Part shown: piece after piece, positions 1,109 to 48,088 of the stretch
How the letters are laid out: each line of letters begins with the position of its first letter
How positions within the stretch are numbered: the first letter of the stretch is position 1
Sequence record: NC_054894.1
Direction: 5' to 3' (one strand)
Origin: Escherichia phage Henu7
Length of the DNA stretch: 49,526 bases
Translations under genes and position numbers: made by a program
Notes under the pieces: generated by a model
Database searches by the model: none
What the model was told of the DNA's origin: nothing
Seen by the model: only the letters and a program-made list of their open reading frames with translations

Positions 1109-2939
1109 TGGCAATCAATGCCGCAACCATAGCTTTCAACTCCTCAACCTCGCCCTCAAGTTTTGCGATCCTCTCCTTGTTCTCATCATCACGCGCACGC
1201 AATGCCTTAATGGCGGCCAGAGCATCCATCATCAGTGGGTTAAGGTCAAGCGTCACTTTCCCTACGCCCTCAGCAGAGTGAACATATTCCTTGTCGATTT
1301 GTTCGATCTGCTGAGCAATTACGCCACGGCGCTCTGTCTGTTCATCATCATCAAGATAGTAGAATCGCTTAAACTCCATTTGACAGATGTTTTCAAGAGA
1401 ATCAGCAACATCGAGATCGCCTTTGACGTGTTTAAAATTAATATCTGATGTTCCAACAGGCTGCATCTGTGTCCATGGAATGGTGGACGAAGGAGTATTC
1501 ATAGCAGCACTAGCCAGGTTCCGGACGAAAAGATTGCCGGATACTCCTGTAAATATTTGCTGTCGGCGCGCAGGGTCATACCCGCATACGATCCCTGATC
1601 CTGCTTGCGGAGCCCAGGCAGTACCAGAGTCGTCAACACCATAAAATCCTGATTCGGTACTTGCTAAAATATTAGTGCCTGGAGTTCCGAAACCAAAGTA
1701 TCCAACTCCTAAGACATTACCAATATTTGCGCCAACATCTTTGGTGGCGGCACTTCCCAAACCGAGGTTTGTGCGAGCGTCAGCAGCATTCTTTGCACCT
1801 GTACCGCCCTGATCAACGCCGAGAGGAATCCAACCAGACCCAAATCTATACAATCCCCAAGTGCTACCATTTGGAGTAATGAGAGCTTGCGCCCCGTCGG
1901 CTGACAATACCTTAGTTTCAGTTGTCGAATCTTGATTAAGTCTATCAACCTGTAGATTTGCTCTTGCGGTTGCCTTGTTCGCAACGTCTGACAGGTTATT
2001 AGCTTTCTTCAACTGGTTGTCAGGGTTAGCGCTAGCAGCTCTATCCGCCTCCGTTTTTGCCCGATCCGCTTGCTGAGTTGCCGTGGTAGCCGATGCCTCC
2101 GCAGCGGTTTTGCTTGATGCCGCATTAGTCTCTGACGTTTTGGCGTTAGTCTCTGACGTTTTTGCGTTAGTCTCTGACGTTTTGGCAGCAGTTGCAGATC
2201 CAGAAGCGGCGCTTGCAGAGTTAGCCGCCGCGCTTGCTGATGATGCCGCCGCCGTCTTGCTTGCATTTGCGTTTGTCTCGCTTGTTTTCGCAGCGCTGGC
2301 GCTAGCAGCCGCAGCATCCTTATGCTGGCTTGCGGTTGTCGCTGAGCTTGCCGCAGAACTAGCGGAGTTAGCCGCCGCCGTTTTGCTCGATGCCGCATTG
2401 TTCTCGCTGGTTTTTGCTGCACTTGCTGATGATGCCGCTGAGCTTGCTTGCTGGCTTGCGGTTGTTGCTGATGCAGCCGCCGCATTCTTGCTTGCGTTTG
2501 CGTTGCTTTCGCTTTGCGCCGCAGCTTTTGCGCTTGCGCCTGCTGCCAATTCGCTTGCCTTAGTATTTCGCTCAATTTCTTCAAGCTTTTGCCAATCAAA
2601 GCTTTTCAGGAAGTCAACAAACTCCTGATACATTGTTTCCTGACCCTGGTAATAACGCAGAGTTTCGGCAACATCTTGCGCCAGGCCGTCAACAGTGATT
2701 GAGTCATGAAGCAGGATCACGTAGTCTCCACGAGGAACTACCGCGCCGCCAGTAGACGTGGCACGCAGTGAGGTATCATTCACGATCTCGCTAATTGTTG
2801 CGTATGCAACCGGATTGGATGCAAACACGATTGTTGCACCTGGACGAATCAGCGTTAATGCTGTTTTCCACTTTGTTCCGTAACCAGTGATATAGCCGTT
2901 AGCGTCCATTGACGCTTGACCAGTGCGATAAATAGCCAT
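1104..2939 (-). CDS. tail fibre protein with C-terminal intramolecular chaperone (peptidase S74-like) domain
   Basis: Start chosen at ATG 2939 (MAIYRTGQ...) with GGGAG RBS; track start is an upstream GTG. Ala/Ser-rich repeat region (3x KTSETNA). C-terminal region FKHVKGDLDVADSLENICQMEFKRFYYLDDDEQ followed by a coiled coil resembles the endosialidase chaperone domain. Confidence 0.7.
   Translation of the reverse strand: MAIYRTGQASMDANGYITGYGTKWKTALTLIRPGATIVFASNPVAYATISEIVNDTSLRATSTGGAVVPRGDYVILLHDSITVDGLAQDVAETLRYYQGQETMYQEFVDFLKSFDWQKLEEIERNTKASELAAGASAKAAAQSESNANASKNAAAASATTASQQASSAASSASAAKTSENNAASSKTAAANSASSAASSATTASQHKDAAAASASAAKTSETNANASKTAAASSASAAANSASAASGSATAAKTSETNAKTSETNAKTSETNAASSKTAAEASATTATQQADRAKTEADRAASANPDNQLKKANNLSDVANKATARANLQVDRLNQDSTTETKVLSADGAQALITPNGSTWGLYRFGSGWIPLGVDQGGTGAKNAADARTNLGLGSAATKDVGANIGNVLGVGYFGFGTPGTNILASTESGFYGVDDSGTAWAPQAGSGIVCGYDPARRQQIFTGVSGNLFVRNLASAAMNTPSSTIPWTQMQPVGTSDINFKHVKGDLDVADSLENICQMEFKRFYYLDDDEQTERRGVIAQQIEQIDKEYVHSAEGVGKVTLDLNPLMMDALAAIKALRARDDENKERIAKLEGEVEELKAMVAALIAK
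2124..2188. repeat. 3 x 21-bp tandem repeat inside tail fibre gene (encodes KTSETNA repeats)
   Basis: CGTTAGTCTCTGACGTTTTG repeated three times head to tail; embedded in a wider low-complexity Ala/Ser-coding region about 2060..2530. Confidence 0.8.
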
Positions 2940-2956
2940 ATGTAAAATCTCCCAAA

Positions 2957-2973
2957 ATAGCACGTTTTGTTAA
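2957..2973 (+). promoter_or_regulatory. TAGCA-N5-TGTTA palindromic element upstream of tail fibre start
   Basis: ATAGCACGTTTTGTTAA, 18 nt from the tail fibre ATG on the opposite strand; member of the dispersed palindrome family. Confidence 0.4.
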
Positions 2974-3004
2974 TGACAAGTCGGATTATAGCATTGCGCA
3001 AGGC

Positions 3005-3031
3005 ATAAAAAAACCCCGCCGAAGCGGGGCA
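3005..3031 (-). terminator. intrinsic terminator after primase (minus strand)
   Basis: Minus strand reads GCCCCGCTTCGGCGGGG followed by TTTTTTT. Confidence 0.7.
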
Positions 3032-3044
3032 AGAAAGCAATGGT

Positions 3045-4001
3045 TTACCGTGTCGGGAGTAAAGTTTCCGGCTTGTAAAGCTTTCGCTCTATCCCTTGCC
3101 GGAAATTATCGTTAATAGGAAGCATCACGTCAAGTCCTCTCTCCTCAGCGGCAATTATTACATCCTGATCAGTTGACCTGCACACTACGCGCATCTTTCG
3201 ATCTCCTTTGTATCTGTGCGCAACAATCTCAACGTTATAACTTGAGAAGCAAGCCCACACCTCCTGGCCTGTAGAGAGGTGAATGTGTTGAGCGTCAACC
3301 CAATCAACGCACAGATAGATCGTGTTGTCAGTTTTACCAGTCACCGCAACGGAGCCGCGCGTATAGTCCTTTGCATAGAAACTTTTCTCGCCTAGCTCGT
3401 CAATCATGAGGATGTTACACATTTCATCATCTAAGCCATCGCCATGCACAAGGTAGCAAGGGATTGCATGAATAAGCGATTCTCCGCCGTTATCCAGCGA
3501 TTTTACGCCTACAGAGTACATTTCATCATCTGGCGTAGCGATGCCCTCAAAAACGCTTAGAGGCGTTTTTAGCACTCCTTTGGTTCTCTCCATTACTGCA
3601 ACGCAGTTTTCATGTGGAGCCTGGGATCCGAAAGAGTAACCTGATGCGCTGGAGGCTCGCTTGTTCGCCTTAACTATATACTCCTGAGGAACCTTTCCGA
3701 GAAAGCGCCCTAAGATGTTGATGCACTCGCTATATGATTCGCCAGTGAGCTTCATTAGCCAGCCAATACCGCTGTCGTTCCCACAACCGTTGCACACTGC
3801 GCCGCCGTCTCCGTCAGTGCTAAGTTTGTCAGTCCAGCGGAATCTGTCTTTACCTCCGCAGTGGGGGCAAGGTTGGTGTTTCTTGTTGAAAACGTCATTG
3901 CTCAATCCGCAAAGGCTTTGTAGCGCATCGCGCCACATCCCTTTCATGTACGGCAAAACGTCCTCTTTCTGAAACATCATGTTTGGGTGTACTTCTTGCA
4001 T
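3045..4001 (-). CDS. DNA primase (zinc-ribbon plus Toprim-like)
   Basis: Start at ATG 4001 (MQEVHP) with GGAG RBS; CPHCGG...CNGCG zinc-binding motif as in phage primases. Confidence 0.65.
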   Translation of the reverse strand: MQEVHPNMMFQKEDVLPYMKGMWRDALQSLCGLSNDVFNKKHQPCPHCGGKDRFRWTDKLSTDGDGGAVCNGCGNDSGIGWLMKLTGESYSECINILGRFLGKVPQEYIVKANKRASSASGYSFGSQAPHENCVAVMERTKGVLKTPLSVFEGIATPDDEMYSVGVKSLDNGGESLIHAIPCYLVHGDGLDDEMCNILMIDELGEKSFYAKDYTRGSVAVTGKTDNTIYLCVDWVDAQHIHLSTGQEVWACFSSYNVEIVAHRYKGDRKMRVVCRSTDQDVIIAAEERGLDVMLPINDNFRQGIERKLYKPETLLPTR

Positions 4002-4059
4002 GACTCGCTCCAATAAAAAAATCGCGTAGCCGGATGATACCAGATACGCGATCTTTGAT

Positions 4060-4500
4060 TTAGCTATTTGTGCTGTTTATGAAGTCCGACTCTTTCACTA
4101 CGCGCAGCATTTCGTATCGGTCACATTTCGTCGTTAGCGCTTTGCCGTTTGAGTCAAATCTCAGATCTGGACGGCAGAATGAAGCGCGATAGCCCTTGCA
4201 GCCGTTTCGCTTATAGTCGGCGTGAACCTTTTCGGCTCCAGAAACGGAAATCATTCCGCGCTTGCGCCACTGCTGGATAACCTGGTGAGTAACCTTTAAG
4301 CGCCTTGTCATTTCTGCCTGAGATCCGTAATATTCGCAAACGGCATCCAGACGAGCACGCAATCCGGCTTTGACTTCATCCTTTAGAACGTAGTAGCCTG
4401 TTTTTCGCTTGCGCTTTTTCTTGTCCTTACCGCGCTTTACACCGTTGTTGCCATTGATTGTGCGCTTGTCAATTTCGCCAGTTGATGCAGCAATTTTCAT
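4060..4500 (-). CDS. helix-turn-helix DNA-binding protein (candidate early regulator)
   Basis: Start at ATG 4500 with GGAGG RBS; basic region KDKKKRKRK; HTH-like segment SQAEMTRRLKVTHQVIQQWRKRG. Confidence 0.55.
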   Translation of the reverse strand: MKIAASTGEIDKRTINGNNGVKRGKDKKKRKRKTGYYVLKDEVKAGLRARLDAVCEYYGSQAEMTRRLKVTHQVIQQWRKRGMISVSGAEKVHADYKRNGCKGYRASFCRPDLRFDSNGKALTTKCDRYEMLRVVKESDFINSTNS

Positions 4501-4513
4501 ATTAAAACCTCCG

Positions 4514-4532
4514 ATAGCACTTTTTGCTAAAA
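4514..4532 (+). promoter_or_regulatory. palindromic element TAGCA-N5-TGCTA in divergent region between HTH gene and helicase
   Basis: ATAGCACTTTTTGCTAAAA; TATTAT hexamer 22 nt downstream at 4552..4557. Confidence 0.45.
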
Positions 4533-4589
4533 ACATTCAAAACGTATGCGCTATTATACATTCAATCGGTTAACGAATAAAGGTTAAAA

Positions 4590-6590
4590 ATGGCAATTCC
4601 AAACATTGATAAACAGCTTTCCGCCTTGGGTGAGGCGGTAATCAAGGCAATTCAAAATCGCTTTACGTTTGGCGAAATCACCCCATACCCTTACCAGTGC
4701 GTTGCTTACACTGAGATCGCAAAACGCATGAAAAATTACGAGCATCCTTTCTTTGTGAAAGCGTCCGTATCTGCTGGCAAAACCATGATTTTTGCAATGG
4801 TAGCGGCTCAGTGCCAGAGAATGGGGCTTAAAATGATGGTTCTTGCTCGCCAGGGTGAGATCGTAGATCAGGATTCAGAGGAGATCAGTAATTTCGGCGT
4901 GCCTAACTCCGTTTACTGCGCGGCGCTGAAACTCAAGGGAGTACACTTCCCCATCGTTGTTGGTTCCGAGGGAACCGTTTCAAATGGACTCTTTAAGGCG
5001 CTTGGTGACTACGTGCCACACGTTATCGGGATTGACGAATGCCACCAAGTAGATTGGGAGGATTTAGCGGAGGCAATCGAAAACGAGGAGCCGTGGGAGC
5101 AAATGACCACGAAAAAAGGCGAGATTGTCCTGAATGGTGACGGATCCCGCGCTCTAAACAATGACGGCGAACCAATGGAGGGAACCGGACGCACGCAGTA
5201 CACGCTTATCATTCGTGAAATGCAGCGCCGATGCAAAGAGACATACGGGCATGAGTTGCGCATTTTTGGAATGACCGGATCTGAGTTTCGCGGCGTGGTT
5301 CCAATCCTGGTGGAAGATAAGCGCCAGCGCGGATTCTGGCGCGAGCAGGTAACGAACATTGATACCAACTACCTGATCAAGTTCGGCTCCGTTGTGCCTA
5401 CAAACTTTGGCTGCGTAGATGGGTTGGGTTATGACCTTTCAGAGTTCACGGCATCCAGCGAGGACGGCGTAGCAGACTTTGACCAGAAAACCCTCAGGAA
5501 GATGGAGGAGAAGATCCATAAAGATGCAACCATGACGCAAAAAATCATGGCACGCGTTCATGAGATCTGCAAAGACCGCAACGGCGTGCTGGTAACTTGC
5601 GCGGGTGAGCGTCACTGTAAAGAGGCCGCCGCCGCACTTCCGCCAGGGGCAACATACAGGATCATCACTGGCAAGACCGGAGAGAAACAACGTAAGGAAT
5701 GGTTAAAAGAGGCATTCGAGGGAAAAGTAAAATACATTTTCCAGGTTCAAGCACTAACAACTGGCGTAAACGTTCCATATTGGGATACTTCCGTTATCCT
5801 GCGCAAAATAGGATCGCTTACACTGCTGATCCAGCTTTTGGGGCGCGGTATGCGACTGTTAAAGAAATGGCACATTGAGCAAGGATTTAAAAAAGACGAT
5901 CACCTTGTTCTCGACTTTGCCGGATGTATGGACGAGTTGGGGCAACTTTACTTTGATCCTATTCTGGAACAAGCGCAGTATCAGCGCCGTGGCGACAACG
6001 GAAAAGATCCTAAATTCTGCCCTGACTGCGGCACGGAAAACTCATTCTATGCACGCCGTTGCGTTCACGTTGACGAAAACGGAAATCGCTGTGAGTATTT
6101 CTGGAAGTATCGAGAGTGCGAGGATCAGGTAGACCCGCGAACGAAAAAGGTTGTCGTTAAAGGTTGCGGCACTAAAAACGACATATCAGCTAGAATTTGC
6201 CGTTGCTGTGACGTGTCGCTTATTGACCCTAACGAAAAGTTATCCGGCAAGCACTACACTAAAAACGATTGGTGTAATGTAAAATCATTCAGAGTTGACA
6301 TGACCAAAAACCAGCGCGGGATCGTGTTCTGTTATGAGCTTGAGTCTCACGGCGAAACGTTCAAAGCTTATGAGCGATTCTTCCCTGAGTCTGACAACCA
6401 GATCTGCAAGACGCTATGGAGGCAAACGGCGCTCAAGCATATTGCAGATCGCAGGATTGCAGGTGTTACTGCGAGCTATCGCAACGCTCGCAAGATTATG
6501 CAAAACGCGCATCACATTATGGCTCCGAAACGCGTTACGCATCGCAAAAACGCGAAAGGAGAGGACATTATTTATCATCGGGAGTTTTGA
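4590..6590 (+). CDS. SF2 DNA helicase (DExH-box) with C-terminal zinc ribbons
   Basis: Walker A SVSAGKT; DECH box (GIDECHQ); Cys-rich C-terminal clusters CPDCG...C..C. Confidence 0.75.
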   Translation: MAIPNIDKQLSALGEAVIKAIQNRFTFGEITPYPYQCVAYTEIAKRMKNYEHPFFVKASVSAGKTMIFAMVAAQCQRMGLKMMVLARQGEIVDQDSEEISNFGVPNSVYCAALKLKGVHFPIVVGSEGTVSNGLFKALGDYVPHVIGIDECHQVDWEDLAEAIENEEPWEQMTTKKGEIVLNGDGSRALNNDGEPMEGTGRTQYTLIIREMQRRCKETYGHELRIFGMTGSEFRGVVPILVEDKRQRGFWREQVTNIDTNYLIKFGSVVPTNFGCVDGLGYDLSEFTASSEDGVADFDQKTLRKMEEKIHKDATMTQKIMARVHEICKDRNGVLVTCAGERHCKEAAAALPPGATYRIITGKTGEKQRKEWLKEAFEGKVKYIFQVQALTTGVNVPYWDTSVILRKIGSLTLLIQLLGRGMRLLKKWHIEQGFKKDDHLVLDFAGCMDELGQLYFDPILEQAQYQRRGDNGKDPKFCPDCGTENSFYARRCVHVDENGNRCEYFWKYRECEDQVDPRTKKVVVKGCGTKNDISARICRCCDVSLIDPNEKLSGKHYTKNDWCNVKSFRVDMTKNQRGIVFCYELESHGETFKAYERFFPESDNQICKTLWRQTALKHIADRRIAGVTASYRNARKIMQNAHHIMAPKRVTHRKNAKGEDIIYHREF

Positions 6591-6592
6591 AT

Positions 6593-7009
6593 ATGGTTAC
6601 TGACAAAGGCGATTATCTGGAATATTACGAACGGGATCCGAGCGACACACGCAAGGAGGATTCACACCAGGTTGATTGTGTGGCGTGGTTGCGCCACCAT
6701 TACCCACACTTGCTCTTTTGGCACACTGTTAATGAGGGGAGCAAGACGATCACCACCGCGCTGCGTGACGAACAGGCCGGATTGCTAAAAGGAGTATCCG
6801 ACTTTGTTATCCTGATTGGTTCTGGTAAATACCCGTTTGCAGCAATAGAGCTAAAGCAAGCCAACAAATCAGGGAAGCGCAAAGCCTCACCAGTCAGCGA
6901 TAACCAGAAAGCTTTCTTGAGCAAGGTCAGAGCGCTTGGTGGATTTGCCGCTGTGTGTTATGGCGTTAAGCAATTCAAGATTGCGATCTCAGATCTTTTA
7001 TGTGAATAG
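6593..7009 (+). CDS. VRR-NUC domain nuclease
   Basis: Start ATG 6593 with GGAG RBS right after helicase stop; motifs GVSDFVIL and AAIELK are PD-(D/E)xK-like. Confidence 0.65.
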   Translation: MVTDKGDYLEYYERDPSDTRKEDSHQVDCVAWLRHHYPHLLFWHTVNEGSKTITTALRDEQAGLLKGVSDFVILIGSGKYPFAAIELKQANKSGKRKASPVSDNQKAFLSKVRALGGFAAVCYGVKQFKIAISDLLCE

Positions 7010-37029: not shown

Positions 37030-40000
37030 ATGGCGGAACAATACGCAGGCTTGACGTTAGGCGTTGACGTTCAGCAGGTAAACAACGCAGTTAAATCCCT
37101 GAGGGATTTTAAGACCGCTTCCGAGGGTGCGGCTGATGGTCTTGAGTCTTTCGTCAATGAGGAGCAGATTGCCAGACAGAGAGCCAAAGATTTGGCCTCA
37201 GAGCTTGCAAAGCAGAGAAAGGAATTTCAGAGCGTACAGGCCGCAATAGATCCGACTGCGGCAAAAATGGAGCGACTAAAGGTTGCTGCGGCTGACCTTG
37301 ATAAGCTTTGGAAAAATGGAGTGGTTCCAGACGAGACATTTTTCCAGCTTGGAGAAATGATTGAGGCTCAGACAAACAAGCTTGCAGCAAACAGAAAAGC
37401 GTTAACGGCTGAGGGCATGGCGGCAATCGAGGAGTCAAAGCAGAAAGCTAAAGCGGCGGCTGAGGCTCAGAAATTCATTGCGGCTCTTGAGGCGCAAGCT
37501 GCTGCTGCTGGCAAGACGCAATCCGAACTGATGGAAATGAAAGCGGCTCAACTTGGTGTTACAGCGCAAGCGGCTCCATTCATTGAGAGAATGCGCCAGC
37601 AAGAGCAAGCGACACAGAAACTTGGAATCTCAATGGGTCAGTATAACCAAGCTATGCGAATGCTTCCGGCTCAGATCACTGACGTTGTAACGTCGCTTGC
37701 TTCCGGTATGCCTGTTTGGATGGTTGCAATTCAGCAGGGCGGTCAGATTAAGGACTCTTTCGGCAGCATAGGGAATGCATTTCAGGGGCTGAAAGATTTA
37801 ATCCTTGGTGCGGGCGTAGATATTAATGAATCTCTGGATGAAACCAGCGAAAACGCCAACGATCTTGCTGAGGGTTTTAATAATATAGCCGATGCTGGCG
37901 GTAGGGTTGGCGGTCTCGCTAGGTTCATTAACCCAGTAACCATCGGTGCGGTTGCCCTTGTTGGTGCTATCGCAGCAATTGCAAAAGCTGGTTTCGATGC
38001 GTGGAAGTCACAAAGGGATCTGGCTAATGCTTTGGTAATTACTGGTGGATATGCTGCCACTACCACAGGGCAGATTGACGATCTGGCGAATGAATTGAGC
38101 GAGACTTCAAGCGCAACTTCCGGAAGAATCAAGGATATCGCGTCAACTTTGGCATCCTCTGGGAAATACACTGTTAGCCAGATTAAGACCATTACCAAGA
38201 CTACTGCGGAATGGGAAGCGCAAACAGGAGAGAGCAGCGATAAAATCAAAGGGTACTTTGACATGATTTTAAAAGATCCTGTCAAGGGTCTTGTCGAACT
38301 TAACGATAAATTCAACTTCCTGAATGAAGGGCAGCTAACCTATATTGATACACTGAGCAAAACCAAGGGCGAGGTAGCAGCAGCAGATGAAGCGACAAAA
38401 CTATTTGCTGAAACGATGGATAAGCGACTGAAAGATGTGGCTGACAGCGCAACACCTCTTGAAGATATGTGGATGGATATCAAGAAGTGGGCGTCAGATG
38501 CATGGGATTGGGTTGGGGATCACACGATGGCGGCGCTTAACCTGATCATTGACGTTGTAGCCGGAACGGTTGAGCAGGTTCGTTATTTGCTTAATCAGGG
38601 TGATATTCTCATTGGTGAATTTATTATATCTGCAACAAATGCTATGCAAAAAATACCTGGTCTTGATGGTGTTGGTGACTCAGTAATTGCAAAGCAACAG
38701 AATATTATAAATAACGCTAAGGAGAACAACAAGGAGCTATTAAAATCAATTGCCGAACGTAACGAGCGAGTCAAAAAAGGCGAGCAGGGTTACATTGACA
38801 TGATGAAAAATCGTGCAGCGGTTGAACAGCAATATGCGACAAAAACAAAAGAGAATATCAGGAAGGAAGCCGAGGAATTAGCTAAGCGCAACAAAAAGCA
38901 AAAGGCTGAAAAAGCTAAGGTATCGGCTGGCGATAAGCTGGAAGAACAATATCAGCGTGATATCCTTGCGCTAGAAACTCAATTAAGAGTTTTGAAAGAG
39001 CACAAGACGATCACAGATACAATAAGCCAGCAACGTAAATCTTTATGGGCTGAACAAGCTAAAATTCAGATTTTGCAAGAAGCCTCAACAAAACGGCAAC
39101 TTACTGATGAAGAAAAAAGCATTTTAGCAAACAAAGATAAGATCCTGGCGATGGCTGAACAAAAAGCTATTTTGGGCGATCAGATTGTTGCGCAAACGCG
39201 CCTTAATCAGTTGCAAGATAGCTCAATCAAGTTTATCCAGCAGCAGAAAGCAGCAACGGAAGCACTAGCCAAAACCAGAGGGTTAAGTGAACGTGAAGCA
39301 GCAAGAGCGGAGGAACGTGCAAAGGTTGAGGCTGATTATCTTGCCAAAGGAGGCAAGGAAGGAGATCCGCAACTCACCGCAATGATGGATGAATTAGACA
39401 ATCGCTATAAAGAGGAAGATGCTAAACGTGCTGATTGGTTGGCTGGCGCTAAAAATGCCTTTGCGGAGTACGGCGAGGAAGCAATGAACATGTATGATAA
39501 TATCGGCAACATTGCGAGCCAGGCGCTAAACGGCCTATCGCAACAAATGTCTGATTTTTTGACTACTGGACAAGCCAGCTTCAAAGACTTTGCAAAATCG
39601 ATCATTAGCATGATTGTTCAGATGATCACAAAGATGGTTATCTTCAATAGCATTTCCGGCATGATGGGCGGCTCAACCTGGACAATGGGATCGCTAATGA
39701 GCGGCTTCTCGTCTGGTGGGTACACTGGCGACGGCGGAAAGTATGATCCGGCTGGCATTGTTCACAAAGGCGAGTTTGTTTTCACTAAGGAAGCAACGCA
39801 GCGAATCGGCGCTCGTAACCTTTACCGCCTGATGCGTGGATATGCAAACGGCGGCAGCGTTGGCGGCTCAGGTTACAGCAGGGCTTCAACTGGCGGCGCT
39901 GGACTTGCTTACTCGTTCGGTGATATCAACGTTGATATCAACAACGGGAGCGATCCAAAAGGTCTTGAAACTGGTGTTAGAATGCTTGTTGCTGATATGC

Positions 40001-40059
40001 TCAAGCGTGAAATGGGTCAAGGCGGCAGCATTTATAATTTCGTTATGGAAAGGAGGTAA
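37030..40059 (+). CDS. tail tape measure protein
   Basis: 1009 aa, coiled-coil-rich, Gly-rich C-terminal region; canonical position. Confidence 0.85.
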
Positions 40060-40061
40060 TT

Positions 40062-40415
40062 TTGGCTAACCTGGAGATGTTTAAATGGTGTACCCAAACG
40101 CAGGGAGGCGGAGGGAGCATGACGACTGAGGACACCGTGAGGGAGGTTGTTTTTGGGAATGGATACACGCAAGTTGCGTCGTCTGGTTTAAACATGACGA
40201 AGCGCAGCTTTAGTGTTATCTACGCTGGTGCTGATTACATGGATGTGATCAGCTTCATGCAAAGGCATCTTGTTAAACCTTTCGCGTGGATTGCGCCTGA
40301 TGGAAAGGCTGGATTGTTCAGGGTTAAATCTGGAACTATCGCAGCCAAGCCAATCTCCCCAACCGCTCAGGAGGTAGCGGCGACTTTCGTTGAGCAATTT
40401 ACCAGCATGGAATAA
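40062..40415 (+). CDS. minor tail protein (lambda M-like)
   Basis: 117 aa immediately after the tape measure. Confidence 0.55.
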   Translation: MANLEMFKWCTQTQGGGGSMTTEDTVREVVFGNGYTQVASSGLNMTKRSFSVIYAGADYMDVISFMQRHLVKPFAWIAPDGKAGLFRVKSGTIAAKPISPTAQEVAATFVEQFTSME

Positions 40416-40418
40416 TCA

Positions 40419-40443
40419 AAGCCGCCTTTGTGCGGCTTTTTTA
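40419..40443 (+). terminator. intrinsic terminator
   Basis: Hairpin AGCCGCCTTTGTGCGGCT followed by TTTTTT. Confidence 0.7.
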
Positions 40444-40485
40444 TTGGTGCTACAATATGCAATTATCACAAAAGGAGGTCTATCA

Positions 40486-41238
40486 ATGGCTACAGGTAAA
40501 GAAGAATTTGAGAACTGCTTACAGAGCCTTTACCCTGGCGAGATCATGACACTGGTAGAGGTTGACGGTACAAAGTTTGGCGCTGGCGTTTACCGATTCC
40601 ATAATGAGAATGTGCAATACACGCCGGAGGAGATCATGAAAGCGGTTGAGAGCGGCACGCTACCGCCAAAGGAGATTATCTTCCAGGGTGAGGCATACGG
40701 AGCGCGTCCTTTCGGAATTACTGGTATCAGCTTTACAAGTGACGGCAAAGCCGGAAAGCCGGAACTAACACTGTCAAACATTGACAGCCAGGTATCGGCA
40801 TTGATTCGTGCTTACAACGGCATGATGCAAGCAAAGGTCACAATATGGGTCACGTCAAAAGAAATGATTCAGAGTGACGGCAGCGTAAAAGACGGCGCTT
40901 ATCGCAAGCTTGTCTACTACGTCGAGCGCCCTAGCTACTGCAATAAGAGCATAGCCAGATTCGAGCTAACCTCTCCATATGATATGGATGGAATAATGAT
41001 CCCGCCACGAATCACTCAAAGCGTTTGCTATTGGGCGCAACGTGGATGGTATCGAAGCGGAAAGGGTTGCAGCTACAACGGATCGCGAATGTTCGACAAG
41101 GACAATAACCCTGTAACAGATCCGAGCCTTGACCAATGCGCGGGAACAGTAACGGCCTGTAAGTTGCGTTTTGGCGCGGATCAAGAGTTAGATTTTGGCG
41201 GCTGCGCAGTCGCATCACTTTTAAGGAGCTACCAATGA
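40486..41238 (+). CDS. minor tail protein (lambda L-like)
   Basis: RBS AAGGAGG before ATG 40486; C-terminal Cys cluster (possible Fe-S site as in lambda L). Confidence 0.6.
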   Translation: MATGKEEFENCLQSLYPGEIMTLVEVDGTKFGAGVYRFHNENVQYTPEEIMKAVESGTLPPKEIIFQGEAYGARPFGITGISFTSDGKAGKPELTLSNIDSQVSALIRAYNGMMQAKVTIWVTSKEMIQSDGSVKDGAYRKLVYYVERPSYCNKSIARFELTSPYDMDGIMIPPRITQSVCYWAQRGWYRSGKGCSYNGSRMFDKDNNPVTDPSLDQCAGTVTACKLRFGADQELDFGGCAVASLLRSYQ

Positions 41239-41951
41239 TTAGCGCAAAAATTAAACTGGAAATAATGCGCCACGCGCAGGACGTATACCCCGCTGAGTGT
41301 TGCGGGGTTGTAACCCAAAAGTCACGCGTCCAGCGATATCACCGAATCAATAACGTGCATGATGATCCAGAAAATCATTTCTTGATGGATGCAGACGAGT
41401 ACGCAGAGATTGAGGGAGGGGATCATGAGATTATCGCAATCGTTCACAGTCACACCGGAGACGGCGCAACAACGCTACCGAGCGCACACGATACTTGCAT
41501 GTGTGACGAAATGGGCGTGACTTGGGTTATCGTATCGCTTCCAGAGGGTGATATGAGAATGATTGAACCTGCAACGCGTCCTCTGATTGGTCGCCCGTGG
41601 TCGCTAGGATCGTATGATTGCTGGGGCTTGATTATGGCGTGGCACAAAGAGCAGGGCGTGATCCTTAATGACTTCCGCAAGCCTTACGAGTGGTGGAAGC
41701 CTGAATATGGCGAAAATCTATATCAGGAGAACTATCTGAAAGAGGGTTTCATTCCAACAGGTAAGGAGCCGGAGCCTGGCGATATGATCATAATGCAGCT
41801 TCAAGCGCCAGTATGGAACCATGCCGGAATCTACTTAGGCAATAATCAAATCCTGCATCATGCTTTTGGCAAGCTGTCAAGATCTGATATCTATTCTGGA
41901 TGGTATCAGGAGCACACGGTAATGATTTGCAGACATAAGGAGCTAAAGTAA
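41235..41951 (+). CDS. tail assembly protein (lambda K-like; JAB/MPN plus NlpC/P60)
   Basis: JAMM-like motif HSHTGDGATTLPSAHD; Cys/His pair DCWGL...HAGIY of NlpC/P60 type. Confidence 0.7.
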   Translation: MISAKIKLEIMRHAQDVYPAECCGVVTQKSRVQRYHRINNVHDDPENHFLMDADEYAEIEGGDHEIIAIVHSHTGDGATTLPSAHDTCMCDEMGVTWVIVSLPEGDMRMIEPATRPLIGRPWSLGSYDCWGLIMAWHKEQGVILNDFRKPYEWWKPEYGENLYQENYLKEGFIPTGKEPEPGDMIIMQLQAPVWNHAGIYLGNNQILHHAFGKLSRSDIYSGWYQEHTVMICRHKELK

Positions 41952-42550
41952 TGCAGACACTAAAGAGAATTAAGCTTTCCGGCTCGCTGGGGCGGCGTTT
42001 CGGCGTTTTTCATGAATTAGCCGTTGAATCATACCCCGAAGCGATTCGTGCTCTCTCTGTGGCGCTGGATGGCTTTAAAGACTATATGCAAAGTGAAGTT
42101 GGTTCGCGTATGCACTACGCCGTTTTTGTTGACGGGAAAAATGTAGGGCAGTATGACGAAAAGGCGTGGAAGTGCGGAAAGGAAATTCGAATCATCCCGA
42201 TCCCGTCCGGCTCAAAATCTGGCGGATTGTTCCAGGTTGTTTTAGGAGCAGCAATCATGGCTACGGCGTTCTTTACTGGCGGCGCATCACTTGCCGCAAT
42301 GGGCGCTCTATCCTCCTCAGCGTTCATGATGGGTGGCGCTATGGTTTTGGGTGGTGTTATGCAGATGATATCACCACAGCGCGGCGGTATGCAGATGGAA
42401 GTGAAGAGTACGGAAAACAAGCCGTCATATGCGTTCGGCGGCGCTGTAAATACCACGGCGGCTGGTTATCCATTACCCCTTCCATATGGCTATCGAACCG
42501 TTGGAGGAGCCATCTGGAGTTCAGGAAGCTATGCAGAGGACAAAGTATAA
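41951..42550 (+). CDS. tail assembly protein (lambda I-like)
   Basis: Position between K-like and J-like genes; Gly/Ala-rich hydrophobic C-terminal half. Confidence 0.55.
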   Translation: MQTLKRIKLSGSLGRRFGVFHELAVESYPEAIRALSVALDGFKDYMQSEVGSRMHYAVFVDGKNVGQYDEKAWKCGKEIRIIPIPSGSKSGGLFQVVLGAAIMATAFFTGGASLAAMGALSSSAFMMGGAMVLGGVMQMISPQRGGMQMEVKSTENKPSYAFGGAVNTTAAGYPLPLPYGYRTVGGAIWSSGSYAEDKV

Positions 42551-42603: not shown

Positions 42604-42622
42604 ACAGCACAAATTGTTAAAA
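42604..42622 (+). promoter_or_regulatory. degenerate palindromic element upstream of J-like gene
   Basis: ACAGCACAAATTGTTAAAA, preceded by hairpin GGTTGC-TATAAT-GCAACC at 42581..42598. Confidence 0.35.
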
Positions 42623-42637
42623 CTGGAGGCCAAAACT

Positions 42638-45600
42638 ATGATAAGCGGCAATAAGGGCGGCTCCTCTAAGCCGTATACGCCAAAGGAGATGGAGGATAAC
42701 CTGATCTCCATCAACAAAATCAAGATCCTCCTGGCGGTTTCAGACGGAGAGGTAGACGGCGAGTTTTCGCTAAAAAATCTCTACCTTGACGACGTGCCAG
42801 TGCAAAACGCAGACGGCTCGCTTAACTATAGCGGTGTTAGTGCTGAGTTCCGGCCAGGCACTCAAACGCAGGACTACATCAAGGGATTTTCAGACACGTC
42901 AAGCGAAGTAACAATTCAGCGAGATCTGGCGCAGAATAACCCTTACAGCATTGCGGTAACAAACAAATCACTATCTGCTATCAGGATCAAAATCCTGATG
43001 CCTCAGGGATACAAGCAGGAGGATAACGGCGATCTGGTTGGTGTATCAGTGCAATACGCGGTTGATATGGCTGTAGACGGCGGCTCATTCAAGCGAGTTC
43101 TGACTGATACGATCACTGGCAAGACAAAAAGCGGCTACGACCGCAGCCAGCGAATCGACCTGCCAGCATTCAACGAGCAGGTGATTTTGCGCGTTAGCCG
43201 AATCACGCCGGACTCTAACACAGGACGAGTTGTTGACGCGATCAGATTGCAGAGCTATGCGGAGGTTGTTGATGCAAAATTCCGTTACCCTCTGACTGGT
43301 CTTGTTTATGTTGAGTTTGATAGCGAGCTTTTCCCGACTCAGCTACCGAACATTTCTATCAAGAAGAAATGGAAGCTGATCAAGGTTCCTGTTAACTACG
43401 ATCCAGATTCGCGCACCTATAGCGGATCATGGAATGGTTTATTCAAGACTGCGTGGAGCAATAACCCTGCCTGGGTTCTGTATGACCTGATCACCAATCA
43501 GCGCTACGGACTCGACCAAAGGGAGCTTGGGATTGAGATCGACAAGTGGAGCATCTACGAGGCTGCGCAATATTGCGATCAGATGGTTCCAGATGGCAAG
43601 GGAGGTTTAGAGCCTCGCTATCTTTGTGATGTGGTTATCCAGAGCCAGATTGAGGCGTTTAACCTTATCCGCGATATTTGCTCAATCTTCCGTGGTATGA
43701 GCTTTTGGAACGGCGAGAGCCTTTCTATCGTGGTGGATAAGCCGCGCGATCCGTCTTACATTTTCAGCAATGACAACGTGGTAAACGGCGATTTTCAGTA
43801 CACATTTGCTAGCGAGAAAAGCATGTATACGCAGTGCAACGTGACTTTCGACGACGAGCAAAACATGTACAGCCAGGATATTGAGGGCGTTTTCGACACT
43901 GAGGCCGCTTTGCGTTTTGGTCACAATCCGACAAGTATCACAGCAATCGGATGCACACGACGCAGCGAGGCGAACCGACGAGGGCGCTGGATTCTCAAGA
44001 CTAACCTGCGCAGCACTACGGTAAACTTTGCAACAGGTCTTGAGGGTATGATCCCGACAATCGGAGACGTGATCGCAATCGCGGATAACTTCTGGTCAAG
44101 TAACTTGACGCTGAATCTTTCGGGGCGCGTCATGGAGGTTTCAGGGCTGCAAGTTTTCCTCCCGTTCCGAGTTGATGCGCGGCCTGGTGATTTTATCCTG
44201 ATAAACAAGCCGGACGGAAAGCCAGTTAAGCGCACTATCTCACGAGTTAGCGCAGACGGGAAAACTATTGAGTTAAACGTTGGCTTTGGTTTCGACGTTA
44301 AGCCGGACACGGTTTTCGCAATCGACAGGACTGATCTTGCGTTGCAGCAGTACGTTGTTACCGGAATAACAAGGGGCGACGATACGGAGCAATTCACGTA
44401 CTCAATAACGGCGGTCGAATACGATCCAAACAAGTACGACGAGATTGATTACGGAGTGAACATTGACGACAGGCCAACAAGCATTGTAAACCCTGGAGTG
44501 ATGAGAGCGCCTGAAAATGTGCAGGTGTCCTCTTACTCTCGCATTGTTCAGGGGCAGAGCGTAGAAACGATGGTTGTTAGCTGGGATAAAGTCGAATACG
44601 CAAGCTTGTACGATGTGCAATGGAGAAAGGACAATAGCAACTGGCTAAACGTTCCTCAGACTGCAAACAAAGAGGTTAGCGTTGAGGGTATTTACTCAGG
44701 CAACTACTTTGTAAGGGTTCGATCAGTATCCGCTTCTGGAAGCACATCGCCTTGGTCTGGCGTTGTTTCCGCCGCATTAACTGGCAAGGTTGGAGAGCCT
44801 AAAATGCCTATTAACTTGACAGCCTCAGATAATGAGATATTTGGGATCCGCGTCAAGTGGGGTATGCCGGAGGGTGCTGGAGATACTGCTTACATAGAGC
44901 TACAGCAAGCGCCGGACGTAGACGGAATGGCTAGCGAAGAAAACGCAACACTGCTAACTCTCGTTCCGTATCCTCAAATGGAGTATTGGCACGCAACGTT
45001 ACCACCTGGATATATCAACTGGTATCGAGTGCGAAGTGTTGACAGGATCGGAAACGTTTCTGCATGGACTGACTTTGTGCGCGGTATGTCGTCAACTAAC
45101 GTTGATGATGTTTTAGGCGACATTCTTGATGATATTTTAAACTCTGCTGGGTTTGAGGAGTTCAAAGAGAATGCCGTAGATACTGCAAACAAGGTTAAAG
45201 ACCAGGCGCAAAGCGTGATCCAGAATGCGCTAGCTATTGATACTAATCTACGCTGGAACCGAGTAGAAAACGGGAAGCGTAAAGCGGAGCACGGACAGGC
45301 GCTGGAGCTTATCGCTAACGAGACTGAGGCGCGAATTCAGGCGGTTGATGTTCTGCGCACTGAGTTTGACGAGGGTATCTCCTCTAACATTACAGAGGTT
45401 AAAACCCTTATCTCTAACGAGGCGGAGACGCGAGCGAGCCAGGTTCAGCAGCTTGAATCTACGTTCACAACAGAGATCGGAAAGACAAACGCAAACGTGA
45501 GTAGCGCACAGCAAGCGATTGCAAAAGAGACTGAGGCAAGGACTCAAGCGGTTAGCTCTCTTGACTCCAAGTTTACAGGGCAGATCAATGGCGTTAAGCA

Positions 45601-46174
45601 GGATTTATCCTCAAACGTCACGAGGTTGGATCAGTCTATCGCGAGCGAGACTCAAGCGAGATCCAGTGCTGACACTGCGTTGTCAACTCGTGTTGGTAAA
45701 ACTGAATCGGCAATTACTCAGAAGCTTGACTCTTGGGTAGACAACGGATCTATAGGTGCTCAGTACGCTCTCAAGCTTGGGATTAAACGTGCTGGTGTTG
45801 AGTACACGGCTGGAGTTTCGCTATCGCTAATCCAGTCAGGTAGCGAGATAAAATCTCAATTCCTGGTTGATGCGGCGAGGTTCGGGGTAATGACTAGGCA
45901 GGGAGGAAGCTACACATTGCCGTTTGTAGTTGATAATGGAACGGTTATCATGAATACGGCGCTAATTAAAAACGGCTCTATAACCAACGCAATGATTGGT
46001 AACGTGATTCAGTCAAATAATTATGTTGCTGGCAAGTCCGGTTGGAGGCTGGACAAAAACGGAAACCTTGAGATCAATGGCAGCGCCGGAAATGGCAGAC
46101 TGACCATTAACAATAACATTATCGCGGTTTACGATGGTAATGGTGTCTTGAGGGTTCGAATGGGGTTGTTCTAA
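42638..46174 (+). CDS. tail tip / central tail fibre protein (lambda J-like host specificity protein)
   Basis: About 1178 aa after M/L/K/I; RBS GGAGG; C-terminal region with ETEAR-type repeats. Confidence 0.8.
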   Translation: MISGNKGGSSKPYTPKEMEDNLISINKIKILLAVSDGEVDGEFSLKNLYLDDVPVQNADGSLNYSGVSAEFRPGTQTQDYIKGFSDTSSEVTIQRDLAQNNPYSIAVTNKSLSAIRIKILMPQGYKQEDNGDLVGVSVQYAVDMAVDGGSFKRVLTDTITGKTKSGYDRSQRIDLPAFNEQVILRVSRITPDSNTGRVVDAIRLQSYAEVVDAKFRYPLTGLVYVEFDSELFPTQLPNISIKKKWKLIKVPVNYDPDSRTYSGSWNGLFKTAWSNNPAWVLYDLITNQRYGLDQRELGIEIDKWSIYEAAQYCDQMVPDGKGGLEPRYLCDVVIQSQIEAFNLIRDICSIFRGMSFWNGESLSIVVDKPRDPSYIFSNDNVVNGDFQYTFASEKSMYTQCNVTFDDEQNMYSQDIEGVFDTEAALRFGHNPTSITAIGCTRRSEANRRGRWILKTNLRSTTVNFATGLEGMIPTIGDVIAIADNFWSSNLTLNLSGRVMEVSGLQVFLPFRVDARPGDFILINKPDGKPVKRTISRVSADGKTIELNVGFGFDVKPDTVFAIDRTDLALQQYVVTGITRGDDTEQFTYSITAVEYDPNKYDEIDYGVNIDDRPTSIVNPGVMRAPENVQVSSYSRIVQGQSVETMVVSWDKVEYASLYDVQWRKDNSNWLNVPQTANKEVSVEGIYSGNYFVRVRSVSASGSTSPWSGVVSAALTGKVGEPKMPINLTASDNEIFGIRVKWGMPEGAGDTAYIELQQAPDVDGMASEENATLLTLVPYPQMEYWHATLPPGYINWYRVRSVDRIGNVSAWTDFVRGMSSTNVDDVLGDILDDILNSAGFEEFKENAVDTANKVKDQAQSVIQNALAIDTNLRWNRVENGKRKAEHGQALELIANETEARIQAVDVLRTEFDEGISSNITEVKTLISNEAETRASQVQQLESTFTTEIGKTNANVSSAQQAIAKETEARTQAVSSLDSKFTGQINGVKQDLSSNVTRLDQSIASETQARSSADTALSTRVGKTESAITQKLDSWVDNGSIGAQYALKLGIKRAGVEYTAGVSLSLIQSGSEIKSQFLVDAARFGVMTRQGGSYTLPFVVDNGTVIMNTALIKNGSITNAMIGNVIQSNNYVAGKSGWRLDKNGNLEINGSAGNGRLTINNNIIAVYDGNGVLRVRMGLF

Positions 46175-46179
46175 CAGAA

Positions 46180-46209
46180 AAGGGAGCCTTGCGGCTCCCT
46201 CTTTTTTTA
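46180..46209. terminator. intrinsic terminator between convergent J-like gene and leftward gene
   Basis: Hairpin GGGAGCCTTGCGGCTCCC followed by TCTTTTTTT. Confidence 0.7.
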
Positions 46210-46539
46210 CATCAATTTGTTGTGGTCAACAGGGATTCTGTTTGTTTGCTTGGTGATCATATCAAGCTTGTATTCATCGCCGCGCTTCCACTCGAATCGA
46301 AGGGTATACGTGTTAGCGTCACCGTAGCACATTACGTGCTTGAATTTTCGCAAGTGCTTATCAAAGATCGCGTTTGTGCTCTCCTCAATCTTCAACGTCC
46401 GATCTGAGCAGTTTACAACGGCGACGGTTGAGCCAGTAAGAGACATTCTGGAAGCTTCAACCGGATAGCCGATATTAACGTTCAAAGCCATAGCGTTTAA
46501 GGGAGCTACAAGAGCCATAGCGAGCATGATTTTTTTCAT
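46207..46539 (-). CDS. secreted/periplasmic small protein (candidate superinfection-exclusion or receptor-masking factor)
   Basis: Start ATG 46539 (MKKIMLAMALVAPLNAMA...) with signal peptide; own regulatory unit upstream on minus strand. Confidence 0.55.
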   Translation of the reverse strand: MKKIMLAMALVAPLNAMALNVNIGYPVEASRMSLTGSTVAVVNCSDRTLKIEESTNAIFDKHLRKFKHVMCYGDANTYTLRFEWKRGDEYKLDMITKQTNRIPVDHNKLM

Positions 46540-46596
46540 TTGCATTTCCTCGTTTCGTTAAGTTGAAATGAGTATAGCCCCATTTGCGTGGCTTGT

Positions 46597-46614
46597 TTTA
46601 GCAATTTGTGCGGT
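46597..46614 (-). promoter_or_regulatory. palindromic element plus TATACT
   Basis: Minus strand reads CCGCACAAATTGCTAAAA, then TATACT and leader AACGAAACGAGGA. Confidence 0.4.
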
Positions 46615-47267
46615 TAGTTGTAACCCTGGAATTTTGCGTATGGTATTTTGAGGTTTCCGCGCCCGTTAAATATTTCAGAGAAAGATCGCTGGTTTCTTCT
46701 GATCCAGTATGTCTGCAACTGCGAACCAGTCCAGCGCATGAGGTTTCCTGAATAACCCTGCGTTTCTCCGTCGTCGCTCCATTCGCCGTAGCAGGCATCC
46801 CAGAGAAAGAATGGGTTAAAACCTGGAGTCACTGAGGCAACGTTAGCCTCAAGGTTGAATGAAGCCGGAACGTCAAGGAATCCCATTATTCGAGGCATTG
46901 TTGCGGCGCTAGCGGCAGTCCAAACAAGATTACCGGAAGCGTCGAATACGTCGAGATAGCCTGACGTAAGCGCCTTGTTTCTCGAAGTCCTGATTATCCT
47001 GATTGCGTTAGTGCTGAACATATCCGCGCCAGGGTAGCCCCACTGGTTATTACCTGTAAACTGAATCCAGGTTAGAAAGCCATCCTTGCGCTTATCACCA
47101 TCGCGAAGATTGCCAAGGGCTTTAACGTTGCCAAATGGCGTGCTTAGGCTGTAAGCCCCAACGTCAATTAGCGGTTGCGGAGTGTAGATAGAATCAAAGA
47201 TCGTATGCTTTTGATCTGAGTTGATCAGGACAACACCCGCGTTATTACGTACCTCAAAGCCTGACAT
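46614..47267 (-). CDS. hypothetical protein, paralog of next gene (possible tail-fibre-associated)
   Basis: Shares DASGNLV motif with 47276..47581. Confidence 0.45.
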   Translation of the reverse strand: MSGFEVRNNAGVVLINSDQKHTIFDSIYTPQPLIDVGAYSLSTPFGNVKALGNLRDGDKRKDGFLTWIQFTGNNQWGYPGADMFSTNAIRIIRTSRNKALTSGYLDVFDASGNLVWTAASAATMPRIMGFLDVPASFNLEANVASVTPGFNPFFLWDACYGEWSDDGETQGYSGNLMRWTGSQLQTYWIRRNQRSFSEIFNGRGNLKIPYAKFQGYN

Positions 47268-47275
47268 AAAGCCTC

Positions 47276-47581
47276 CTAGTTAAACATGTAAACTTCAATG
47301 GTAAGAGTCTGATCAACAAGCGGATTGCTTGTTGGCAGGTAAAGAACATCAACGCCGCCGTTTCTCGTCACGGCTGCATAGCTTGGTTTATACACAGCGC
47401 CAGCAGATGCCGCCATGACAACCGCGAACGAGTTGGAACCAGTCAGCCCAGCTACGTTGAAAGAAACCGCGCGAGTAGTTCGCGGGAATGAAATGTTTTG
47501 CCGGACAACAAAGCGCGTACTGAAATCGCCAAGATCGACAACCAGGTTTCCGCTTGCATCCCAGGCTTGAAGACCAGGCAT
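47276..47581 (-). CDS. hypothetical protein (DASGNLV motif)
   Basis: Motif WDASGNLVVD; first gene of a leftward unit transcribed out of the AT-rich control region. Confidence 0.45.
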   Translation of the reverse strand: MPGLQAWDASGNLVVDLGDFSTRFVVRQNISFPRTTRAVSFNVAGLTGSNSFAVVMAASAGAVYKPSYAAVTRNGGVDVLYLPTSNPLVDQTLTIEVYMFN

Positions 47582-47769
47582 AATGCCACCTCTCTAGTTT
47601 GCTTATTAAGTGCATTTAATATACAGGCGCGGCGTAATCATTTCAATGGCAAATGCAAAACCTTACCTTGATTGTTCTTTTTGTTTCTCGATGTTCTCTA
47701 TTGCGCCCACCGCAGAATCGCACAACGTTTCAGAACAGAAAAAACAAAATAAATCATCTATAATATATA

Positions 47770-47815
47770 ATAAAATCAATAGTTTAGTTTATATGTATTT
47801 GTATATTGTTATTTA
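47770..47815. repeat. AT-rich conserved element, copy 2
   Basis: ATAAAATCAATAGTTTA identical to 17254..17270, followed by a similar TTTATATGTATTTGTATATTGTT tract. Confidence 0.7.
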
Positions 47816-48030
47816 TTGTTTCCAGTGTTTCAGTGTTAATTGATGTACTGGCTTTCTTTAGTCTTGATATCTCTATTATCCATTTGATGTGTGTATTTAT
47901 ATAAACCCCACCGCAAATCCGTGAACAATGAAACAAAAAATAACGACGTTTAAAATCATTCACTTAAGAGCTGATTTTGTTATCGAGGTTGAAAGATGTG
48001 TTTCGAGAACAGAAAAAACAATTGAAGGTA

Positions 48031-48058
48031 TTGACTAAACGCCACAAATGGCTACAAT
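48031..48058 (+). promoter_or_regulatory. candidate sigma70 promoter for recombination operon
   Basis: TTGACT, 16-nt spacer, TACAAT, about 30 nt upstream of RBS CAGGAG and ATG 48089. Confidence 0.5.
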
Positions 48059-48088
48059 GCACGTATACCAACACACAGGAGCGAAAGA

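Follow-up and report, generated by a model that had tools for sequence, protein, structure and literature searches.

A TonB-C-terminal-domain-like protein encoded beside the receptor-binding genes of Escherichia phage Henu7 is a predicted periplasmic superinfection-exclusion factor

Introduction

Small exported proteins encoded beside a receptor-binding protein (RBP) gene are known from several phages: Llp of T5, Cor of T1, phi80, N15 and HK022, and Rtp45 of Rtp. All are lipoproteins of about 6-7 kDa. Llp and Cor are exclusion proteins that act on FhuA, and cryo-electron microscopy has shown Rtp45 on the periplasmic side of LptD, where it reshapes the extracellular loops and so keeps the RBP from binding (bioRxiv 10.1101/2025.07.07.663478). 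Here we examine a gene in a similar position in the 49,526-nucleotide sequence of Escherichia phage Henu7 (NC_054894.1), the whole of which we call the window. It encodes a precursor of 110 residues, here called SIP after its ortholog SIP-1 in phage IsaakIselin, and lies next to the genes for two predicted receptor-binding proteins, RBP-1 and RBP-2.

The terminal receptor of IsaakIselin is YncD, now called PqqU, as established by knock-out and complementation (PMC8594841). In 2025 its protein QXV80559 was named SIP-1 in Science Advances and predicted to be a periplasmic superinfection-exclusion factor resembling the TonB C-terminal domain (PMC12124388). That prediction came from SignalP, from the Foldseek likeness to the TonB C-terminus and from a confident AlphaFold2-multimer complex with PqqU on its periplasmic face; in AlphaFold2-multimer models of the same study QXV80560 and QXV80561 (RBP-1 and RBP-2) dock on the extracellular face of the receptor. 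The authors likened SIP-1 to Llp of T5, and their proposal is computational (PMC12124388).

The same function and fold have thus already been published, as a computational prediction, for a protein 97% identical to that of Henu7. As the idea is in print for the IsaakIselin ortholog, our analysis provides confirmation and a family context and not a new concept. It adds lipoprotein and long-form relatives, a partnership with the receptor-binding genes that extends over three gene orders and into prophages, the shuffling of SIP and RBP-1 as modules, and an operon in place of a private promoter.

Results

The reading frame of the SIP gene runs from its first ATG over 46207..46545 and would give 112 residues. 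The Shine-Dalgarno sequence GAGGA stands only 1 nucleotide from this ATG and 7 nucleotides from the one at 46539, and the IsaakIselin ortholog is annotated with 110 residues, so we prefer the start at 46539 (MKKIM...). The gene of 110 codons put forward in the original prediction is therefore real and conserved, and its product matches phrog_25729 (E 4e-29), to which PHROG assigns no function. By tblastn SIP is 97.3% identical to QXV80559; the first 48 residues are the same and the differences are L49V, Y72H and K85N. An exact-sequence cluster look-up places QXV80559 and the Henu7 entry QEA09717.1 (112 residues) in one 90% cluster. The IsaakIselin gene, bas10_0024, occupies 6408-6740 of the retrieved IsaakIselin stretch, and its product has His at position 72 (CHGD), where Henu7 SIP and all 21 other aligned members have Tyr (CYGD). 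The aligned position of TonB is also Tyr (RY).

The family is small and confined to phages of Enterobacterales. Homologues were found by tblastn in 42 of 50,697 phage records, as five clusters in a set of 5.8 billion proteins and as 19 representatives in one of 1.84 billion. They reach down to about 25-30% identity, with P26, A29, R31, C44 and C71 invariant throughout. The invariance of the two cysteines would fit a periplasmic disulfide.

Structure models and profile searches relate the mature part of SIP to the C-terminal domain of TonB (PF03544; E. coli residues ~150-239; PDB 1XX3, 2GRX, 2GSK). An AlphaFold2 model built from six sequences was mediocre (predicted local distance difference test, pLDDT, 64.5), and Foldseek ranked three TonB C-terminal domains at its top with non-significant E values of 0.27-0.8. 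A second model, from 21 homologues, reached a pLDDT of 74.2 overall and 81-93 for residues 21-90. Its helix at 27-31, strands at 36-43 and 48-54, helix at 57-70 and strands at 77-86 and 94-98 reproduce, as modelled, the order of the TonB C-terminal fold, which is a short helix, a beta-hairpin, a helix and a third strand in one sheet.

Searched against all PDB sequences (E<=10), a profile of 22 SIP sequences gave six matches, all of them TonB (E 0.07-0.66), in alignments that span the region from a YP motif to the 'CY' of SIP, set against the 'RY' of TonB. When the profile was aligned by hhalign with one for the enterobacterial TonB C-terminal domain, the match had a P value of 0.0019 over 71 columns. 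The motif itself, Y25-P26-x-x-A29-x-R31-x-x-x-x-G36, has the TonB spacing (E. coli Y163-P164...G174), with Y25 and G36 kept in at least 90% of the 22 homologues, and both HMMER and hhalign place it on TonB YPARAQALRIEG. It lies in the part that the homologues conserve best, N-V-N-I-G-Y-P-V-[DE]-A-[SA]-R-[ML]-S-L-x-G (residues 20-36). The strand at 77-86 is aligned by hhalign to the TonB segment GIVVNILFKI, which we take to be the strand that pairs with the TonB box (PDB 2GSK, 2GRX). We regard the relationship to the TonB C-terminal domain as well supported by the modelled structure and suggestive at the sequence level.

Unlike full-length TonB, Henu7 SIP lacks an N-terminal membrane anchor, a Pro-rich spacer and a part that couples to ExbB/ExbD, and so it cannot transduce energy. 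As the precursor is just a cleavable signal peptide followed by the domain, we see in it a mimic of the TonB C-terminal domain and not a TonB. SIP would be released into the periplasm, or anchored to lipid in some relatives, whereas TonB is tethered to the inner membrane, and the SIP family has its two invariant cysteines and a conserved C-terminal Q..R tail that are missing from TonB.

Export was part of the original prediction, and the N-terminus agrees with it. An n-region (MKK), an h-region (IMLAMALVAPL) and a c-region (NAMA) with A-x-A at -3/-1 predict cleavage between NAMA and LNV, and SignalP 6.0 is positive for QXV80559, whose N-terminus is identical (PMC12124388). The protein had also been set apart from the Cor type by its missing lipobox. 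Inspection of the N-terminal sequences found no lipobox in Henu7 SIP or its Drexlerviridae relatives, so the distinction is right for these phages, but it does not extend to the family. A lipobox or lipobox-like signal is present in all 13 homologues examined from temperate phages and prophages (HK639, LMessi and 11 prophage loci), with LVAGC, LLAGC, LISGC and similar sequences, LLVAGC in HK639 and the less canonical ATSAC in Franconibacter. As these 13 relatives are lipoproteins, the missing lipobox appears to be a variant of the virulent Drexlerviridae lineage and not a family trait. Their lipobox and YP motif are separated by a linker of about 12-15 residues, and in none of the sequences examined does Asp follow the Cys. 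In E. coli a residue other than Asp at +2 predicts sorting to the outer membrane, and by this rule the lipoprotein homologues are predicted to be sorted there.

A third form, of 196-271 residues, occurs in KLB22-type phages and in the metagenomic proteins P0016-P0019. Its N-terminal extension, which matched no annotated family, leads into a hydrophobic segment, and an A-x-A-like site stands just ahead of the YP motif; the SIP-like domain makes up the C-terminal third of the reading frame, which in the Klebsiella phage KLB22 (MVRL022) lies at 3521-4291 of the retrieved stretch. These long forms may be anchored in the membrane in the manner of TonB, or their translation may begin at an internal start. 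No homologue lacks an export signal, be it of the signal-peptidase-I type, a lipobox or the internal hydrophobic segment of a long form, and what is conserved across the forms is, to judge from these sequences, the delivery of the domain to the periplasm.

Henu7 SIP is the last member of a receptor-recognition cassette downstream of gpJ, and the convergence with the J-like gene that had been claimed for it is correct, with a bidirectional terminator between the two stop codons (Table 1). Other alleles of the locus have in the accessory position a protein for which exclusion has been demonstrated, Rtp45 for LptD and Llp/Cor for FhuA. Of the 50,697 phage records 57 have an RBP-1 homologue, and these include all 42 in which SIP occurs (hypergeometric P 8e-134, without correction for relatedness). 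A prophage scan with one genome per bacterial species gave 11 SIP loci, in Enterobacter, Franconibacter, Siccibacter, Pseudescherichia and one unclassified bacterial isolate, and J, RBP-2 and RBP-1 are immediately adjacent at every one of them.

Three gene orders were found. In Henu7 and at least 20 other virulent Drexlerviridae, J is followed by SIP, RBP-1 and RBP-2, which all run towards it on the opposite strand. In the lambdoid phages HK639 and LMessi and at the prophage loci, J, RBP-2 and RBP-1 run in one direction and SIP follows on the opposite strand. In KLB22-type phages J is followed by RBP-2, RBP-1 and a tail fibre gene, and the SIP domain is encoded among the early genes, after repA and at a distance of about 16 kb. 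The linkage of SIP with the RBP genes survives these rearrangements.

The linkage bears on what a TonB-like domain in the periplasm could bind. TonB boxes are short and differ little between transporters, and in the TonB-BtuB and TonB-FhuA complexes they are bound largely through the backbone, by beta-augmentation. A protein with a TonB-C-terminal-domain-like fold might for this reason occupy the TonB boxes of many transporters and not of PqqU specifically, acting as an antagonist of the whole TonB system; it would then shut TonB-dependent uptake and either protect the cell from TonB-dependent phages (T1, phi80) and colicins or reprogramme its nutrient import. That SIP does not vary tightly with RBP-1 in sequence would also suit such a role. 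Nevertheless, homologues were found only with PqqU-type RBP-1, in the 42 phage records and at the 11 prophage loci alike, and none was found in records that have no RBP-1. Cassettes of the FhuA and BtuB types, moreover, are described in the literature as combining unrelated RBP families with Cor/Llp-type lipoproteins, and IsaakIselin infection does not depend on TonB. We consider a general antagonist unlikely.

The Enterobacter phage AS5 (OR753409), about 94% identical to Henu7 genome-wide, has none of RBP-1, RBP-2 and SIP, in keeping with three genes whose presence and absence go hand in hand. Its J is longer (1312 residues, against 1186 in Henu7), and directly after it, on the minus strand, lies a gene for a lipoprotein of 78 residues with the lipobox VVGC (stretch 1365-5570). 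This lipoprotein probably serves exclusion for another receptor allele.

Expression of SIP had been attributed to a regulatory unit of its own. The parts named for it exist: TATACT at 46571-46576, the leader AACGAAACGAGGA and a hairpin are all present upstream of the gene. The unit that they were said to form finds only partial support. There is no -35 element 16-19 nucleotides from TATACT, the nearest (TTGCTA) being 22 nucleotides away, a promoter scan called nothing at this site, and in PHB17 and BananaBelafonte the spacer of 64 nucleotides is missing altogether, so that SIP is coupled directly to RBP-1 (TAA-GGAG-5 nucleotides-ATG). On these three grounds we rejected a private SIP promoter as our main reading. 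A weak promoter match does occur upstream of the homologue in HK639.

The hairpin was also considered for a role in termination. A U-tract is absent, and the structure is weak in Henu7 (z -1.5) but strong in IsaakIselin (z -4.0) and IME347 (z -3.6); it may terminate transcription in part or affect RNA stability. A C-to-A change breaks one pair of the Henu7 stem, which reads GCCAC...GGGGC where relatives have AGCCCC...GGGGCT; IME347 has a perfect stem with a different loop (GAAA).

SIP is more likely the last gene of a three-gene RBP-2/RBP-1/SIP operon that ends at the bidirectional terminator. The candidate sigma-70 promoter upstream of RBP-2 is likely to drive it.

An operon shared with RBP genes would also suit a protein that helps to build the virion, either as an assembly factor such as a chaperone for RBP-1 and RBP-2 or as a minor component of the tail tip. 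SIP lies directly downstream of RBP-1, it is translationally coupled to it in PHB17 and BananaBelafonte, and PHROG offers no function. Phage tails, however, are assembled in the cytoplasm, and every SIP homologue has an export signal, which at the 13 loci examined is a lipobox or lipobox-like signal. RBP-1 (MSGFEV...) and RBP-2 (MPGLQAW...) show no N-terminal signal-like sequence by eye. The opposite strand of SIP in lambdoid phages and prophages, and its place among early genes 16 kb from the RBP genes in KLB22, speak further against a part in assembly, which we regard as highly improbable.

The features of the locus are collected in Table 1. For most of its length the near-complete Henu7 genome (Drexlerviridae, Henuseptimavirus) shares about 94-95% identity with those of IsaakIselin/Bas10, JohannLBurckhardt, Samwise and AS5.

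Table 1. Features of the SIP locus and its surroundings in the window
Feature	Position	Strand	Remarks
Tape measure gene	37030-40059		
Minor tail and tail-tip assembly genes	40062-42550		M/L/K/I-like, judged from position and the IsaakIselin/AS5 annotations
J-like central tail fibre / tail tip gene	42614..46174	+	Convergent with the cassette
Bidirectional intrinsic terminator	46181..46200	both	Common to the J-like gene (+) and SIP (-); z -3.7 on +, z -4.9 on -
SIP-1-like gene, 110-residue precursor, stop codon included	46207..46539	-	Ortholog of IsaakIselin bas10_0024 / QXV80559
Mature periplasmic domain of 92 residues, TonB-C-terminal-domain-like fold (predicted)	46210..46485	-	YP..A..R....G motif at residues 25-36; C44, C71
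Signal-peptide coding part, residues 1-18, MKKIMLAMALVAPLNAMA	46486..46539	-	Predicted signal peptidase I cleavage after A-M-A; no lipobox
Shine-Dalgarno sequence GAGGA	46547..46551	-	7 nucleotides upstream of ATG 46539; kept in relatives
Hairpin between RBP-1 and SIP, followed directly by TATACT	46577..46594	-	One mismatch; unconvincing as a promoter
RBP-1, 217 residues, predicted PqqU/YncD-binding protein	46614..47267	-	Ortholog of QXV80560
RBP-2, 101 residues, predicted RBP-1 partner	47276..47581	-	Ortholog of QXV80561
Candidate sigma-70 promoter TTGAAA-17-TATATT, 10/12	47618..47646	-	Upstream of RBP-2, within cassette-specific DNA

Between the RBP cassette and the exonuclease VIII gene lies an AT-rich non-coding region of about 420 bp (47670-48088). 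It is highly conserved even in AS5, which lacks the cassette: an alignment of 542 columns, which includes the divergent cassette edge, has a mean column identity of 93%. The region holds two copies each of CCCACCGCA(G/A)AATC and AACAGAAAAAACAA and a strong plus-strand promoter match, TTGACT-16-TACAAT, at 48031-48058; it may be regulatory or origin-like. In the Pantoea phage TacPo2 (65 kb), which has a distant RBP-1 relative, a cluster of 11 tRNA genes (1768-2685 of the stretch) stands immediately upstream of the RBP-2-like and RBP-1-like genes, and no adjacent J-like gene was present in the stretch fetched.

Discussion

Our preferred reading is that mature SIP probably binds the periplasmic face or the TonB box of PqqU and so makes the receptor unavailable to phages equipped with the RBP-1/RBP-2 pair. 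A receptor-blocking or exclusion role, exerted from the periplasm and without a lipid anchor, was what the original prediction had proposed, and we infer it from the position in the cassette, the linkage with RBP-1, the export signals and the published SIP-1 prediction. Binding to PqqU is predicted by the AlphaFold2-multimer model in print for the IsaakIselin ortholog. An effect on exclusion, its allosteric or competitive workings and the time at which SIP is made are likewise inferred.

The TonB C-terminal domain docks on the periplasmic face and the TonB box of TonB-dependent outer-membrane transporters, and SIP may have taken over this way of binding. In the infected cell SIP would pass by the Sec pathway into the periplasm and there be cleaved by signal peptidase I. 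The mature domain of 92 residues would then bind the periplasmic side of PqqU, which the RBP-1/RBP-2 pair would recognise from outside the cell. PqqU in complex with SIP would no longer be usable for adsorption or DNA entry, so the infected cell would be closed to superinfection and progeny would also be spared from waste on cell debris. Llp on FhuA and Rtp45 on LptD would be its analogues.

How binding on one side of the outer membrane could close the other is a separate matter. IsaakIselin plates equally well on tonB mutants, so SIP does not act by blocking a TonB-dependent step of infection. One option is reverse allostery, which has been shown for Llp and Rtp45. Another, which we hold to be rather doubtful, is that SIP outcompetes TonB at the PqqU TonB box and leaves the receptor locked with pyrroloquinoline quinone (PQQ) bound and unable to bind the RBPs ('ligand trapping'). 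PqqU would then not be energised, and its loops 7 and 8 would stay closed. The protection that PQQ gives against IsaakIselin is about 1000-fold better in tonB mutants than in the wild type. In the study that named SIP-1 (PMC12124388), the closed state of PqqU clashes with the RBP model. Ligand trapping would on these grounds mimic a tonB mutation for a single receptor. If it were true, phages would have captured a host TonB domain and put it to use in a soluble, a lipid-anchored and a long form, the last with its N-terminal extension and hydrophobic segment.

Compared with Llp, Cor and Rtp45, Henu7 SIP shares the position at the RBP locus, downstream of a gpJ homologue, and the signal for export to the periplasm. 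The homologues in temperate phages are lipoproteins, as Llp, Cor and Rtp45 are. SIP of Henu7, in contrast, is not lipidated, has a TonB-C-terminal-domain-like fold and is larger, at about 10.7 kDa when mature, and its receptor differs too, as PqqU/YncD is predicted. No annotated exclusion family in Pfam, PHROG or NCBIfam was found for it, and the sequences of Llp, Cor and Rtp45 were not directly compared.

Several points weigh against this reading, and the first concern the fold. Foldseek listed no TonB among the top 50 matches of the second model, which is inconsistent with the result from the poorer first one. The probability that hhalign gave the TonB match is just 14.6%. By every curated threshold the likeness falls short of membership in Pfam PF03544 (TonB_C) or in the NCBIfam TonB family: three homologues reach E 0.13-0.17 with TonB_C, at 12.8-13.2 bits against a cut-off of 24.6, and the HK639 homologue reaches E 0.029 with the NCBIfam TonB equivalog, far below its cut-off. 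Henu7 SIP alone, or a shallow profile, gave no useful match in Pfam, NCBIfam or PDB sequences; the sole PDB match of these searches was an antibody chain (E 0.03), which we set aside. If the TonB likeness were convergent or uninformative, SIP could have some other periplasmic role, such as modulating lysis or envelope integrity or serving as a decoy against host defence. The receptor-specific linkage, together with the export signals, argues against this as it does against the other alternatives, and we think such a role quite unlikely.

The same holds for the closeness of the partnership with RBP-1. In relatives of RBP-1 below about 45% identity (JVSB2, ATCEA23, SG01, TacPo2), a search with hidden Markov models over open reading frames in six frames found no SIP nearby, so the partnership is not obligatory. 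Even where both are present they do not keep step. The RBP-1 of NBD2 and that of KLB19 share 98% identity with their Henu7 counterpart, and HazelMika's shares 97%, yet the SIPs of these phages are only about 52% identical to Henu7 SIP, NBD2's being 53%; Henu7 SIP is 95.5% identical to that of JohannLBurckhardt, and the RBP-1 pair is just 60% identical. Over the family the two identities correlate with a Spearman rho of 0.61, with clearly discordant cases. The original prediction had suggested looking for co-variation of SIP with the C-terminus of J. Co-occurrence with the RBP genes is borne out at the level of the family, but fine co-variation, with the J C-terminus or with RBP-1, was rejected on account of the discordant identities and this rho. 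The coupling seems to be one of families whose modules are shuffled.

A trace of such shuffling may be visible in Henu7. Megablast gives a breakpoint near 46454, at about codon 29 of SIP and within its conserved N-terminal coding part. From there through RBP-1 and RBP-2 to about 47577 the sequence is 95% identical to NBD2, HazelMika and KLB19, and past the junction SIP has only the protein identity of about 52% with these phages. The breakpoint looks like a recombination junction in the stretch that codes for the signal peptide and the YP motif.

Two further points belong on this side. If SIP and the RBP genes share a transcript, its expression may come late, a timing less typical of exclusion genes. 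Literature searches, in addition, brought up no member of the SIP family for which exclusion, a block to adsorption or binding of PqqU had been shown by experiment, and nothing relevant on virion proteomics or on Henu7.

If the proposed function is confirmed, phages of this group would have built an exclusion protein from a copy of a host energy-coupling domain, and SIP of Henu7 would stand beside Llp, Cor and Rtp45 as a counterpart that is not a lipoprotein. A soluble mimic of the TonB C-terminal domain with specificity for one TonB-dependent transporter could be used as a tool that turns off this transporter alone. SIP would also be a marker that helps to predict from the genome sequence which phages use PqqU/YncD as their receptor.
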